Below are positions 6,269 to 56,279 of a stretch of 64,000 nucleotides of DNA, one piece after another (within the stretch, counting starts at the first letter, position 1; each line of letters opens with the position of its first letter). The position numbers were made by a program, and so were the translations under genes. Location: positions 84,258,001 to 84,322,000 of the forward strand of contig OX597816.1 in the NCBI GenBank assembly GCA_951406725.2. The letters are read 5' to 3'. The notes beneath the pieces are model-generated. The model had not been told where the DNA came from. It was given only the letters and a program-made list of their open reading frames with translations, and did not search any database. The DNA is from Octopus vulgaris (lineage: Eukaryota).

Positions 6269-8021
6269 AAAGAGAGCCTATGTCAACAACAAGACATAAC
6301 AATTACGATGACTGCCTAAATGATAAACAGAACGTTATTAAGTATTAAAAAAACCCGTACACACATACACACACGCGCGCTCGTGCACTCATTCCTGATT
6401 GCACAATCCGATGTAGTTAGGATTCAACGTCATTAGTGGGTATATGTCTTATATTGCCAACTAATAAGCGACTGAATATATAATTCGTTAAATTACTTGC
6501 ACTATTATTTATATTTAAATGACATGTGACATTCCTTCTTGAAACTTTATTTCGTTAGCCTTGCTTACTTAGGTATATATCTACATATATATGTGTGTGA
6601 ATGTGTGTGTCTCTATGTATGTAACTATGTGTTTATATATATATATATATATATACATACACACAGACAAACACAAACACATATATACGTATGTGTCTAT
6701 TGATATTTATATAGATAAACTAATACAAATGATGTTTATATACATTCCATAATTCAGTCTTTGAAATAACGTATATTATATATTGATTATACTCTTGTGT
6801 TTTTAATAATCATGCAATTTAGAATTTCTTTGTATGCTTAATATATGTGCAATGTTGTTTTGGTCCTTTTAGTGTCTTGTATCTGTTACCTATATTTCAA
6901 TTTGGTATTGTGTAGACAATTTACAACACACGCATACATACGCACACATACACACATACATACACACACATGCACATACATTAGCAGCGCTGAAACTAGG
7001 CACATTGAGGAACTGCGTGACATCGTGGCAAACACATTTGCGCCCACGCAAAAGCAAGAGAAACACGCGCGCATCTATGCACTCACGCGCATTTATACAT
7101 TTTCAATTCCTGGCATACATGAAAGAGCTTTTGCGCACATATATTTATACACTGCTGAAACAAACATATGTGCATTGAAACACACACGAATACACAAGCA
7201 TGGAGACAAACGAACGCAAATAGAGAGGAACATGGACTCTAGCAAACATTGATGTACTATGCTCACGTTTCATAGGAACCAACTGGATGATCTTCGTTTG
7301 GTCAGCTTATTAAAAATATCATTTACAATAAATTGAGCCTTATTGGAAAGGAGAGAAAACAGTCGAGATATTCGCTGCAGATATGCTTTTAAGGAAAATT
7401 CTGCTCCGTTTAAGTCTTAACAGGAGCTAAACAACAGTGTTGGGACACAATGACAAACAAAATGTACACACAAGCATACACACACACACACACACGCACA
7501 CACACACACACACACACACACACACACACACACACACACACACAAACACACACCTATATGTACAGTAATCTCAACCAAACCTGTCCTACGGACGGGAACG
7601 CGTAGCCCTGGGTATCAGTATTTGTGATGTCTTTTCAGCTTTATTAATGAAGCATATTACTCTACCTCCTGTATTCGACTATCACTTTTTTCCATACAGC
7701 GTATGTATATATATATATATATATATCTATATATATATGTGTGGGTGTGTGTGTTTATGTATGCATATATATGTAGGTATACATATATGTATGTATATAT
7801 ATATATATATATATATATATATATAGTGTTAATGTAGGCAGCACTAAGCAATGTGTACCAAAAGGGAAGGCTATAATCGCCATTAAATATGACTAAGAGT
7901 GCTAGAAACACCTACATAGCCTGAAGTGCTAGATGCTCTAATTCTGCATTCAAAGTACACGCTTGTCTACATGCATGATGATAGGGACCATAATCAGTCG
8001 AAAGGTAGCACTCGAGATACC

Positions 8022-8068
8022 CCCAGACTGACCAGTTTCGGGTTTTTCACGGTAACCTCTTCAGTGGT
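8022..8068 (-). ncRNA. Hammerhead ribozyme motif, type I
   Basis: Minus strand: ACCA-CTGAAGA-GGTTaccgtgaaaAACC-C-GAAAC-TGGTCA-GTC-TGGG. Confidence 0.75.
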
Positions 8069-8305
8069 GTCGGTCCGATTCAGTTGTTCTGGGACGATGA
8101 TCACTGACAGCATATATGCCTACAGCATAAAAATCTATGGATGATCTAGTGAATCACTAATTTGTACGGAAATAATTAATGGAGCCAGCGGTAAGCAATG
8201 TGCTTACATATATATTAGCTATTCTCTAAATCACCAATAGATTTCTACGTTGGTACTTATATGATATCACTGATCTTCGTCCGAGAACAGCGGCGTTGAG
8301 CTCGA

Positions 8306-8356
8306 TCCCACTGAAGAGGCTGACGAAAAAGTCGAAACTAACCAATCAATCTGGGG
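8306..8356 (+). ncRNA. Degenerate hammerhead ribozyme motif, type I
   Basis: TCCCA-CTGAAGA-GGCTgacgaaaaAGTC-GAAAC-taaccaatca-ATC-TGGGG; stem III eroded. Confidence 0.55.
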
Positions 8357-8524
8357 ATATCTCGACCGCTGCTTTTCAGACCATTACGGTTCATGTCAGC
8401 ATGTATGTAGACAGTTACGTGCTTTGACTGCAAAATTAGAACTTTTAGCTCTTAATTCTAGCAATGTAGGATTTTCTAACACCTTCCGTCATATTTAATT
8501 ATATAAATATATATTAATAATATC

Positions 8525-8745
8525 AAAGGGTAATCAGAAATATTAGAAATTTCTATTACCAGTGGTCTAGCGTGTAAAGATTTAGTCAATAGACTATATA
8601 TTATTTATATAAATACAGTGTACATTTAAACACATAAGAGGCATCCATTAGAGGACTACTGGCACGCTAGACAGAACAGTTAAATTCCAAATCACTATTA
8701 GGGATAAAATTTCGAAGGGAATGAAACATAAAACCATTTACCATC
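8525..8745. repeat. Dispersed AT-rich repeat (second copy about 10950-11180), abutting (TA)n
   Basis: Shared blocks ACCAGTGGTCTAGCG, CAATAGACTATATATTATT, TACATTTAAACACAT, CACTATTAGGG, TTTCGAA.GGGAATGAAA; weaker relative at 44345-44510. Confidence 0.7.
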
Positions 8746-53000: not shown

Positions 53001-53436
53001 ATGACGCATGAATATAGGAATTAAATGATTTCGAGGTGGAGACCTGAGCATTTAGAGGTCAGCTCTGTATCTATACACACATTGTGTATCAGAGATATTC
53101 TTCTTCCAAGCCATCTACCCCGAAGAAGCCCTATCCACATTTAAGTGTACGATTATATATTATTCTACACACACACACACACACATATATATGTATGTAT
53201 GTAATTCCAAGACAGTTAGAGGTTGTGAATCCAACCAACTAAGGGATAATATCTATCCAATATACTGCTGGTAATAAACCCAATTATTTATACACAAGTG
53301 TTCTTTCATTGCATGCCAATTACATTACTGAATGTAATAAATGGGTGAGGTAAAAAATAATTTTACCCTTAATTTATACAGCAATAAGAAAATGGAGGGG
53401 ATCAAGAGTTGATATTCATCAACTTTTAGACATATT

Positions 53437-53535
53437 CATCATCATCATCGTTTAACGTCCGCTTTCCATGCTAGCATGGGTTGGACGATTTGACTGAGGT
53501 CTGGCGGACCAGATGGCTGCACCAGACTCCAATAT
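53437..53535 (-). mobile_element. RTE-like LINE/SINE 3' tail with (GAT)n
   Basis: (CAT)4 CGTTTAACGTCCGCTTTCCATGCTAGCATGGGTTGGACG: stem-loop plus trinucleotide tail typical of RTE 3' ends. Confidence 0.55.
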
Positions 53536-53665
53536 TATATTTATTTATTTATTTTTTAAATATACATACATTTATAACATTAATTATACATGTATAACAC
53601 TGTTATACATGTATAACCAGTAATTATTAAAATATATAACGTAGAGCATAGAAAGAAGGATAATA

Positions 53666-53786
53666 TCTTACAGCTCTTTCAGCCAAGAGGCTATAATCCC
53701 CATTCTACTTTTATACCTCCAGTGAACTGAAGTATACGGTAGATAAAATTAAGGTACTTGGGTGTGTCTCTGCGCTTCGTCAGAGA
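53666..53786 (-). ncRNA. Degenerate hammerhead motif with long stem II insert
   Basis: Minus strand: TCT-CTGACGA-AGC...(about 90 nt)...GCT-GAAAG-AGCT-GTA-AGA; inverted partial copy CTCTCTGAGGAAG at about 53997-54009. Confidence 0.55.
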
Positions 53787-56279
53787 GTTTAAAAAGTTCA
53801 TAAGGTTAGTTATAAATATAAGTACATACATAGATACATACTTTTACATATACATGCATATACATAAATACATATAAACGCATATACATATGTATATATG
53901 TATATGTGTTTATGTATATTTATGTATATGTATATGTAAAAGTATGTATATATGTATGTATTTATATTTATAACTTAACTTTATGAACTTTCTAAACTCT
54001 CTGAGGAAGGACCAGGCCTCATGCACTCCCAAATGTGATGCATCCAAATTGAGAGAACAAGTATTCCAACCATCACCGCAAATTCTCAGTGTAATACGAT
54101 TAAGATTTCCTCCGAAAATATATGAAATAGAAAGATAGATAAAATTATTAACACCAACGTCGCTACCACCAGAACCACTACCAACGAGAAAATTGGTATC
54201 ACTACTACTAATACAACAACAACAACAACAAGTACTACTACTACTACTACTACTACTACTACTACTACTACTACTACTACTACTACTACTACTACTGCTG
54301 CTACTACTACTACTACTGCTACAACAACTACTACAGTAACTATTTTTGCTACTGCTGCTGATGGTAACGAGGATGAAAATTGTAATAATAATAAAGACGG
54401 TGATGATAATAATAATGATTATAATCATTTCAAATTTTGGCACAAGACCAGTATTTTCGGGGGAAGAGGTAAGTAAGTAGTAGTAGTAGTAGTAGTAGTA
54501 GTAGTAGTAGTAGTAGTAATAATAATAATCTTAACAAGTAATAATACTGATATTAATAATCTAATGATAGAATACCATTAAGAATGATAATAATAACAAG
54601 AAACTAGATAATGAAATAAAAATAAATCAAAAACAAGAAGATAAAAACAAACAAAAATAAACACAACCAAACGATATAGAGAAAGAAAAATAATCAACAA
54701 CAACTAATATACGAAAAGGCAAAAGCAAAACCAAAAAAGAATACGAAAAACAAATACAAATACAAAACAAAACAAGAGAAAAACAAAGAAACAATTGAGA
54801 ATAAGAAATGAAAATAGATGAAGTTTGATGATCAGTTGAGTTGTGATGACTGCCACGTATCTTGACTTCGTTGAAATAATTCTTCTCCTTCATCTATAAA
54901 TGGCGTTCAAAGAGATTACCTCAAATATACATACGTGTGTGTGTGTGTGTGTGTGTACATGTATATATGTACGTATGTGTATAGATATGTGGACGTAATA
55001 GCGGTGGGGCGACAGTATACGTATAAATTTCCGATAAAACTGAGCATAATTACATGAAAACAAATGAAACTAATGCAATTATATATTAGGTCCGAAACCT
55101 AACTGAATTACGTATATTAAAGAAGTGGAGATGAGAGGAGACAAGTATTGAAGGATAGAAAAGTTTGAGGGTGGTTGGGGAATGAAGAAGCGCAGGATAA
55201 AGATATAGAAGAGGTGCAAGAGAGGAGAGAGAAGATGGGAAAGAGACGCAGAAAGGGAGGGCGCGAGGGACAAAATGAGACACAGTAAAACAGAGGGAGC
55301 GAGGGGCGAACGGAGATAAAGGGGCGGGGAGGAGCAGCAGAAAATAAGATTGAAATAGAGAATTTCATCAGCGGTAAGATATGTCCGCATTTAGGTATAC
55401 ACGAGTATGCATGCATGTATATATGTATATATGTATGTATAGAATGAGAGGCGTATAAGTGAAATTGAGGTTCATAGATAATGACTGTATACATACACAC
55501 CACACACATGTAAACATACATCTATCTCTTTATATGTATGTTCGCATGTATATTTGTTTTTATGTGTGAATAGATAGATAGATAGATAAATAGATGGATA
55601 GATGGATAGATAGATAAATAGATACATAGGTAGAAAGACAGACAGGCAGACAGACAGACAGACAGACAGATAGATAGATAGATAGATAGATAGATAGATA
55701 GATAGATAGATAGATAGATAGATAGATAGATAGATAGGTATACGGATGGATAGTTGGATGGGCAGCGAAACTGACAGATACATGGAAAAATAGATAGTTA
55801 GGTAGATGAACTAAGTGAATAGATAAGAATAAAATAAAAATAATAAATACTATGCTAAAAGGAGAGTTGCAAATATTAATACACGCTGCGCAGCAGAGAT
55901 ATATTTAGCTGGCCAATTTATACTCTGCGATGTACATCTGCAGTATGTACATGTAGTATTATATCTATATATATATGTATGTATATATATATATATATAT
56001 ATATATATATATATACATATATATATGTATATGTATATATATATGTATATATATGTATATATATATATATATATATATATATATATATATATATATATAT
56101 ATATATATATATATATGACGTCAATCATGGCGACCACTTGGGATTGAGACTTCTAGATAAGAGTAACCGGCTGATAACTTTAAAATATAAAAATGTGATC
56201 CATACACACATTTCATGTATGTGTTTGTTTTCTGTGTCTGTGTGTATGTATGTATTTTTATTTCTGCTTGCGTTTGTAT

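Follow-up and report, generated by a model that had tools for sequence, protein, structure and literature searches.

The window, by which we mean the whole stretch of DNA analysed, comprises 64,000 nt from Octopus vulgaris (assembly GCA_951406725.2, contig OX597816.1, positions 84,258,001-84,322,000, forward strand). All five inverted repeats claimed in the initial annotation were found where they had been placed, and are referred to as E1 to E5. Their arms are identical in 215 of 296 alignment columns for E1 (7882-8161 and 8214-8499), 242 of 244 for E2 (32213-32455 and 32466-32709), 151 of 186 for E3 (37391-37575 and 38074-38234), 257 of 271 for E4 (42766-43034 and 43053-43323), and 105 of 118 for E5 (53775-53891 and 53896-54009). 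A sixth divergent inverted repeat, X14 (13991-14313; 93 of 124 columns identical), was not in the original list. Arm identities span 99% to 73%. The proposal that such repeats were formed repeatedly is supported.

The spacers between the arms are short (8, 18, 52, and 77 nt), with one of 498 nt; under independent truncation, such short spacers have a probability of ~0.04 to <0.001, depending on the assumed mean and with thresholds set post hoc. E1 to E5 are mutually unrelated, as had been stated, giving no cross-match in a masked self-BLAST (E<1e-3), and within the window each palindrome occurs only once in palindromic form. The repeats also lack a coding body: no match to a reverse transcriptase or GIY-YIG domain was found in 148 frames scanned against Pfam (the longest among 159 low-repeat frames), the only matches above cut-off being pieces of mariner elements.

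Five of the repeats (E1-E4 and X14) compare with six unpaired ends of like type in the 64 kb. These six ends had been overlooked in the first reading, as had a convergent mariner pair, whose 3' ends lie tail to tail (44591-45407; 259/271 identical) and form an inverted pair without a ribozyme. A hairpin at 44508-44591 is also free of ribozyme motifs, and one hammerhead-like family has two convergent copies 2.8 kb apart (10651-10892 and 13702-13936). One family with copies at 669-1025, 17744-18147, 48123-48495, 56938-57079, and 63235-63413 (five in all) was considered as a candidate ribozyme family and rejected; the swapped-core match in this family, at 56972 on the minus strand, is taken as chance.

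Hammerhead motifs

A minimal type-I hammerhead motif is present near the 3' end in E1, E2, and E4, and absent from E3, E5, and X14. Four of the six arms of E1, E2, and E4 match a strict type-I descriptor (E1 left, E4 left, and both arms of E2), and the right arms of E1 and E4 retain both core boxes with substitutions in one stem. The descriptor has five matches in the window, compared with a mean of 0.365 (maximum, 3) across 200 shuffles. In E1, the motif is located at ~8020-8070 in the left arm, a 3' end of the type found in Penelope-like elements (PLEs), and the core at ~8305-8358 in the right arm, where stem III is degenerate. The E2 motifs are located at 32257-32334 and 32588-32665, the second of them having a long stem II. 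The left arm of E4 contains a minimal type-I hammerhead with a palindromic stem III (42930-42974), and the right arm a hammerhead with one stem-II substitution (43115-43159). In each case the left arm is on the minus strand and the right arm on the plus strand, and the core spacings between arms are 247, 262, and 153 bp. A shared polarity, with a ribozyme or tail facing outward in both arms, had been claimed for all five repeats; for a ribozyme in both arms it holds in E1, E2, and E4 (3/5) and fails in E3 and E5. Adjacent hammerhead pairs in the window are divergent in three of three cases, which is weak evidence by itself (1 in 8). Read-through RNA is predicted to fold into a long hairpin that buries its own ribozyme core, as had been suggested.

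Rfam detected no hammerhead at gathering score in the window, and local searches on E4, E1, and E2 found none at E<=10; at E<=1, nearly all of the best 150 of 345 matches were microRNA models matching microsatellites. Searches for PLE proteins with frames from E4 and E2 (47 and 42 amino acids, and therefore weak tests) gave no match at E<=1. Because neither a link to a PLE protein nor an Rfam hammerhead was found in these searches, membership of the PLEs rests on motif and architecture. The earlier assignment of PLE-like 3' ends in head-to-head polarity is supported.

Ends and flanks of the repeats

E3 consists of a long copy on the minus strand (37391-38073), comprising the arm and the 498-nt spacer, and a short inverted copy on the plus strand (38074-38234) without a ribozyme core. 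Neither arm contains a core; one is located in the spacer, on the minus strand at ~37630-37670, with GAAA preceding CTGANGA. We infer that the spacer belongs to the same element as the arm. A one-armed relative of E3 was found at 41526-41697 by self-BLAST of the window, and a metagenome scan with the E3-family pattern returned 0 matches. That the swapped core might function as a type II hammerhead was considered and rejected: judged by eye and from folds, stem I stays open both in E3 and at 41659.

The elements had been described as two-tailed. In the strict sense they are not, as the extra tail is found at a single end, judging from sequencing depth, a contig piece, and loose ends for E2 and from the boundaries for E3 and E4. 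The left arm of E2, with the 8-nt spacer (32457-32464), occupies 32213-32464 on the minus strand; the spacer is native family sequence, and the left end runs tail-less into (TA)n. The right arm (32465-32706, plus strand) continues into a one-sided 3' tail of ~70 nt (32707-32778, plus strand), which has a high copy number like the arms and is followed by (TA)n. In E3, a putative plus-strand tail of ~41 nt (38235-38275) precedes (TA)n. E4 is made up of the left arm and an 18-nt spacer (42766-43052, minus strand), the right arm (43053-43323, plus strand), and a putative one-sided tail of 49 nt (43324-43372, plus strand) that would lie within the target-site duplication.

An 11-nt direct repeat flanks the whole of E4, with a chance probability of 0.023 (300 random pairs). 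Its copies, at 42758-42768 and 43373-43383 on the plus strand, are a candidate target-site duplication of 8-11 nt, 3 nt of the left copy overlapping the arm end. E4 is the only one of the six repeats with such a candidate. E2 and E3 are flanked on both sides by (TA)n, which is also the longest direct repeat there, and the longest flanking direct repeat of E1, E5, and X14 is 6 nt (chance, 0.52).

E5 (53775-54009) is a real inverted repeat, with a TA/TG microsatellite at its centre; it vanishes after masking, and each outer arm has ~50 nt of unique sequence. A 9-nt half-core, CTGA.GAAG, marks the point where either arm stops. No ribozyme is confirmed in E5, because this half-core comes without GAAA or stems. 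Whether E5 is a PLE relic or a MITE is uncertain, and it does not fit the explanation developed below. X14 has a CTGAAGA half-core at 14200 on the plus strand, without a canonical GAAA.

The E2 family

E2 is the only repeat whose family was studied in contigs from four public sequencing runs, which were aligned to E2. The family is very abundant in these contigs, and it runs on beyond the centre of E2: loose ends with a like continuation at 32464 were seen in at least three of the four runs, in at least 4, at least 6, and at least 3 contigs (loose-end counts are from the 24 rows listed, beside 650 further rows). Among the best 15 of 39 joints, one connects 32464 to 32534 with five native letters and corresponds to a head-to-head copy with a different centre (X2). 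In another, a reversed tail piece is joined at 32504 (X1), and two joints that go back, 32593 to 32546 and 32629 to 32599, are partial tandems (X2). Each of these joints is represented by a single contig. The contigs also show tail-less ends at 32693. Summed depth over 32696-32789 stays at 1e4-5e5, compared with ~5-80 for each single contig listed, and one contig crosses from the arm into the tail (32636-32747). Among the contigs listed, none bridges E2 to its flanks, the microsatellite flanks having been left out of the alignment, and the best 15 of 39 joints include none that spans E2 as an empty site would. E2 is part of a longer element, cut short on its 5' side, and no fixed palindromic unit, because the family passes the centre, has another centre, contains partial tandems, and carries a one-sided tail.

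At the mirror sites 32301 and 32621, the window allele is the minority allele in all four runs, the other allele accounting for 76-100% of the depth; at site 32678 the window allele is also the minority (other allele, 64-97%). Both arms of E2 carry both family-minority alleles. Taken together with the one direct repeat around E4, this indicates single insertion events. The shared alleles could also be explained by a common subfamily or by later gene conversion from arm to arm. The E2 join shows no microhomology with the native continuation. A metagenome scan with the E2 pattern returned 121 loci, four of which matched the window; they were dropped as chance because the match is confined to 21-25 nt around the pattern itself.

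Comparison with known elements

The architecture is already known and does not represent a new class. Text from PMC8557442 describes PLE units that include an inverted copy truncated at its 5' end and, at one end, a tail of 30-40 bp, and text from PMC3846280 gives head-to-head as the commonest arrangement, with palindromes at junctions and target-site duplications of 8-10 bp. The units of endonuclease-positive PLEs (Penelope/Poseidon, Neptune, and Hydra) described in these passages share with the repeats in our window the head-to-head layout, a tail at one end, a hammerhead near the 3' end, and variable 5' truncation and partial tandems within a family. Their single short target-site duplication and their AT-rich or (TA)n targets have candidate counterparts in the direct repeat around E4 and the (TA)n flanks of E2 and E3. 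The repeats in our window differ in being truncated until no ORF is left, and their tails are longer (~41-70 nt; 49 nt in E4 and ~70 nt in E2). The distinct minimal class proposed in the initial annotation is therefore not upheld: the E2 family reaches beyond the centre and includes tandems, ends without a tail, and centres other than that of E2, and the layout is that of the published PLE unit, taken to extreme truncation.

In Schistosoma mansoni, dual minimal hammerheads lie on opposite strands 100-700 bp apart, according to a passage of PMC4209133. They resemble our motifs in being type I, in the extra base after position 9, and in the small palindromic stem III; E2 differs from them in its 51-nt stem II region. 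That passage gives no polarity and no label of a palindromic element. In the supplement of PMC8557442, Naiad 3' ends have an 'HHR_half_core' in which GAAA comes before CTGANGA, the same order as in the E3 spacer, at 41526-41697, and at 59266-59350; the last of these resembles the Naiad_Obim end by eye. E3 is like Naiad in having a half-core only, no canonical hammerhead, and a (TA)n target. The core likeness is one of box order only. Naiad is a PLE with an N-terminal endonuclease (EN-CxC-RT order), and no such ORF is present in the window. Of five short window motifs compared with this supplement, four were absent and one had an unrelated match.

The non-LTR retrozymes described in bioRxiv 10.64898/2026.07.22.740005 are likewise non-coding, carry a type-I hammerhead, and derive from PLE pLTRs. 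They are head-to-tail tandems, however, and the inverted pairs in our window cannot make a same-strand dimeric ribozyme; no head-to-tail tandem array of hammerhead monomers is reported at these sites. The main text of PMC13282606, in the portion available, contains neither 'palindrom' nor 'hammerhead', and PMC10085705, as far as its available text goes, is not applicable here. We found no named palindromic non-autonomous PLE class in the literature searched, which did not extend to subscription papers or Repbase/Dfam.

MITEs and fold-back DNA elements are non-coding palindromes of 250-600 bp. The repeats described here differ from them in having no fixed centre, asymmetric ends, and ribozyme motifs, and the candidate duplication around E4 is 8-11 nt long, compared with TA for MITEs and fold-back elements.

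Mechanism and alternative explanations

We consider E1 to E4 likely (probability roughly 0.8) to be insertion units from several PLE families that were dead on arrival and had suffered extreme truncation at the 5' end, each unit probably the product of one event and one template. How they formed is less certain. Neither of the two routes named in the initial annotation fits as stated. If the first strand, primed at the target, had simply folded back, it would be unexplained why only the shorter arm has the tail; twin priming of the L1 type inverts segments that are not duplicated. Priming at both target ends is our tentative choice, at slightly less than even odds taken by itself. The GIY-YIG endonuclease of the element would nick the two strands at a target rich in AT or made of (TA)n, and the reverse transcriptase would prime at both nicks, copying one short RNA twice. 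One copy would begin at an outer start site and include the tail, the other at an inner start site and lack it. Both cDNA ends would halt at nearly the same point and be joined without homology, and the staggered nicks would give a single target duplication around the whole unit. Later decay of the arms would account for their range of identities. According to PMC11167929, a Poseidon protein is able to cleave either strand and extend it, and two RT start sites lie on either side of the tail.

A close rival is a self-primed hairpin, in which the antisense strand folds back and is extended, and the endonuclease trims one tail on integration. We regard it as possible but doubtful. From it, near-equal arm lengths and shared minority alleles follow directly; the model was proposed in print by Arkhipova et al. 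2013, and Craig et al. put the tail down to endonuclease resolution (PMC8557442). However, the E2 join shows no fold-back pairing with native sequence, and the presence of the tail on the shorter arm and its absence from the longer one require an extra trimming step.

Another reading, in line with the separate class proposed in the initial annotation, takes the palindromes as self-propagating non-autonomous units, a MITE-like class of PLEs. The high share of repeats relative to unpaired ends and the abundance of the E2 family would agree with this, but we judge it improbable given the other centres and tandems of the E2 family, which passes its centre, the one-armed copy of E3, and the lack of any palindrome repeated within the window. 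Equally improbable is that the arms arose independently, or that inverted duplication or repair at the locus produced them at a later time, without a connection to retrotransposition. The window does contain ribozyme-free inverted pairs (the mariner ends and the adjacent hairpin) and convergent hammerhead-like copies, and E5 may belong here. Against this, one direct repeat surrounds all of E4, copying of the other arm could not yield a one-sided tail, and the hammerhead pairs are divergent, for what this is worth by itself. Finally, an assembly or long-read fold-back artefact at E2, as its near-perfect identity and the lack of a bridging contig among those listed might suggest, is very improbable in view of its asymmetric ends, its one indel, the independent contigs from short reads in which this family again shows a head-to-head joint, and the four diverged palindromes of like design nearby.

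Short, abundant copies such as E2 are good material for studying how PLEs build their head-to-head layout; microhomology at the centre, coupling of arm lengths, the identity of the tail-bearing arm, and alleles shared between arms discriminate between two-ended priming and a self-primed hairpin. The stubs also matter for annotation, as they resemble MITEs or microRNA hairpins. The hairpin RNA that would hide the ribozyme core is predicted to be a by-product, and the suggestion that it is an ADAR or Dicer substrate is already known in generic form; small RNAs and hyper-editing of Penelope have been published. It is conceivable, if rather unlikely, that frequent head-to-head formation with tightly coupled arms in octopus-like genomes has made Penelope stubs a major dedicated source of near-perfect dsRNA that drives the hyper-editing known from cephalopods and silences the families to which the stubs belong, with some palindromes perhaps re-mobilised whole. 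If stubs accounted for much of cephalopod hyper-editing, the chemistry of retroelement integration would be tied to a host trait.

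Inverted repeats and polarity of their hammerhead motifs

The window is AT-rich (GC 0.345) and ~22% microsatellite after masking. Arm alignments recovered all five inverted repeats of the initial annotation (E1 to E5, in window order), and a masked self-BLAST found no matches among them, in agreement with their description as mutually unrelated. Arm identity is 215/296 columns in E1 (7882-8161/8214-8499; spacer 52 nt), 242/244 in E2 (32213-32455/32466-32709), 151/186 in E3 (37391-37575/38074-38234; spacer 498 nt), 257/271 in E4 (42766-43034/43053-43323; spacer 18 nt) and 105/118 in E5 (53775-53891/53896-54009). 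A sixth divergent repeat, absent from the initial list, lies at 13991-14313 (93/124 identical); it contains a CTGAAGA half-core and is extended, on its right side only, by ~40 nt of GC-rich sequence. Of five spacers, four are ≤80 nt (8, 18, 52 and 77 nt, compared with 498 nt for the fifth; P between ~0.04 and <0.001 if truncation is independent, the range being set by the assumed mean and the thresholds having been picked after the data were seen).

A type-I hammerhead descriptor matched five sites, compared with a shuffle mean of 0.365 (maximum 3 in 200 shuffles): both arms of E2, the left arms of E4 and E1, and a solo site at -6263. The right arms of E1 and E4 retain both core boxes, with substitutions in the stems. 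Rfam recognised none of these motifs, either in the window search or in local searches on E4, E1 and E2. The proposed arrangement, a hammerhead in both arms with the left on the minus and the right on the plus strand, holds for E1, E2 and E4 and fails for E3 and E5. E5 is mostly TA/TG repeat and terminates in a 9-nt half-core without GAAA or stems. The E3 arms lack a core; the spacer holds one on the minus strand with GAAA before CTGANGA. This swapped order occurs four times in the window (0.385 expected), at 59266-59350 (+), 37630-37690 (-), 41640-41697 (-) and in an unrelated repeat, the last being taken as chance. In the E3 family, a stem II of type II could form from the sequences on either side of the swapped core, but stem I does not close. 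By eye, the solo end at 59266-59350 looks like the 3' end of Naiad_Obim.

Six ends of this general kind are unpaired: -6263, +10744, -13843, +31995, +59336 and -41659, the last being related to E3 but one-armed. The first belongs to a solo type-I hammerhead that looks intact and whose stem II is long (6190-6270, minus strand), next to (TA)n. The copies at 10651-10892 (+) and 13702-13936 (-) form one convergent family, 2.8 kb apart and 88% identical. Each copy, ~230 nt long, sits in a microsatellite, shares both ends with the other and carries a minimal hammerhead with CCGA in place of CTGA. An older, decayed hammerhead-bearing end (31944-32140, plus strand; summed contig depth up to ~3,000) lies immediately left of E2, which is inside its microsatellite end. 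Together with a tail-to-tail pair of mariner 3' ends at 44591-45407, the convergent 10744/13843 pair shows that the inverted repeats of the window are not all of one polarity; uniform polarity is limited to adjacent hammerhead-bearing arms.

Other repeats

The mariner ends (259/271 identical) surround a CA/TG repeat and adjoin an 84-nt hairpin, the whole spanning 44508-45407. Sequence beyond the right copy is the decayed remains of a transposase (Pfam HTH_48, Transposase_1), and a second decayed mariner transposase fragment lies at 49095-49549 (+; Transposase_1). Adjoining E3 on the left is a short element bounded by terminal inverted repeats of 37 bp (37137-37379), presumably Tc1/mariner-MITE-like. 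A diverged inverted repeat without a ribozyme core (41114-41336; 68% over 227 columns) is possibly an old MITE. Five copies of a SINE-like repeat (669-1025, 17744-18147, 48123-48495, 56938-57079, 63235-63413) contain an internal duplication, and no hammerhead was found in them. There is a weak 5S rRNA-like match at 8949-9045 (+; 34.2 bits, gathering score 38).

Insertion boundaries and the E2 family

An 11-nt direct repeat (42758-42768/43373-43383; chance 0.023), overlapping the arm end by 3 nt, encloses both E4 arms and a 49-nt right extension; as a candidate target-site duplication, it suggests that E4 arose in one insertion event. E2 and E3 each lie between (TA)n runs, and E3 has ~41 extra nt on the right. 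No flanking direct repeat above chance was found at E1, E5 or the sixth repeat.

Four public runs, from three studies and under three organism labels, supplied contigs that were aligned to 31850-33250 at 85% likeness; the joints and loose ends cited below are among the 15 of 39 and 24 of 674, respectively, that were listed. Summed depth over the E2 arms, which is not copy number, is ~1e4-5e5 compared with 5-80 per listed single contig, and marks the family as very abundant. High depth continues across 32696-32789, and one contig passes from the arm into that stretch; other family contigs stop without it, going into (TA)n. E2 thus has a one-sided tail of ~70 nt, carried by the arm whose 5' part is shorter; the putative tails of E3 and E4 would be placed likewise. 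A (TA)23 run right after the E2 tail (32769-32836) is flanked by a 10-nt direct repeat, which makes the exact right boundary uncertain. At 32464, contigs listed for three of the four runs proceed into a shared different sequence. The family therefore reaches beyond the E2 centre, the 8-nt spacer is part of the left copy, and the right arm is joined without microhomology. Individual contigs among the listed joints reveal another head-to-head copy whose centre differs (32464 to 32534), a piece of tail attached in reverse at 32504, and go-back joints of partial-tandem type. At the mirror sites 32301/32621, and also at 32678, both arms carry alleles that are in the minority within the family in each of the four runs; the E2-site flanks show 0-1 differences in the runs, compared outside microsatellites.

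Classification and mechanism

We consider it probable (about 0.8) that these repeats represent the published insertion unit of Penelope-like elements (PLEs) at extreme truncation, E5 falling outside this explanation. Passages of PMC8557442 describe PLEs that have an inverted 5'-truncated copy beside their 5' end and a tail of 30-40 bp, frequently present at just one of the ends, and that target (TA)n. Parts of PMC3846280 give head-to-head copies as the most frequent Penelope form, with palindromes at the junction, 8-10 bp target-site duplications and small RNAs from Penelope copies; an extract of PMC4209133 reports dual minimal hammerheads on opposite strands, 100-700 bp apart. The architecture is thus already known. 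Of 159 low-repeat frames, the 148 longest were searched against Pfam, and only mariner pieces scored above cut-off. Neither this search nor protein searches with short E4 and E2 frames found a reverse transcriptase (RT)/GIY-YIG parent for any arm, and the assignment to PLEs is accordingly based on motif and architecture. The literature searched, open papers, names no palindromic non-autonomous PLE class. That the repeats form a distinct new minimal class, as first proposed, is very improbable given this precedent and the E2 family, the one with family-level data, which extends past the E2 centre and has other centres.

For their formation we tentatively prefer priming at two ends. Both strands of the target would be nicked and used for priming, a single short RNA would be copied two times, beginning at two start sites, and the resulting cDNA ends would be joined bluntly. 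The blunt E2 join favours this model, which also fits the Poseidon protein in vitro: the portion of PMC11167929 available describes cutting and extension of both strands and a tail located between two RT start sites. A self-primed hairpin with one end trimmed by an endonuclease, modelled in the Discussion of PMC3846280, is somewhat less likely, as the E2 join is blunt. Every step in both models is one that we infer. Simple fold-back and twin priming, the routes originally suggested, do not fit as stated, as a target-primed first strand cannot supply its copy with a tail it lacks itself, and L1-type twin priming yields inverted but non-duplicated segments, unlike the duplicated arms here.

Predicted RNA folding

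Parts of PMC5625713 report that Penelope is massively edited in a lizard and that near-perfect dsRNA is in excess in octopus; for Octopus vulgaris, PMC13282606, in the text available, gives 31 Penelope-like families that were recently active. Either read-through strand of E1, E2 and E4 is predicted to fold as one long hairpin (-268 to -506 kcal/mol). The predicted unpaired probability of the CUGANGA core is 0.0 in the full element compared with 0.39-0.58 in an isolated arm; isolated arms are not predicted to fold cleanly into a ribozyme either, and metazoan minimal hammerheads are described, in an extract of PMC4209133, as cleaving weakly, as dimers. The folding predictions agree with the suggestion that a read-through transcript would bury its own ribozyme core, and such burial would follow from any palindrome of this kind.
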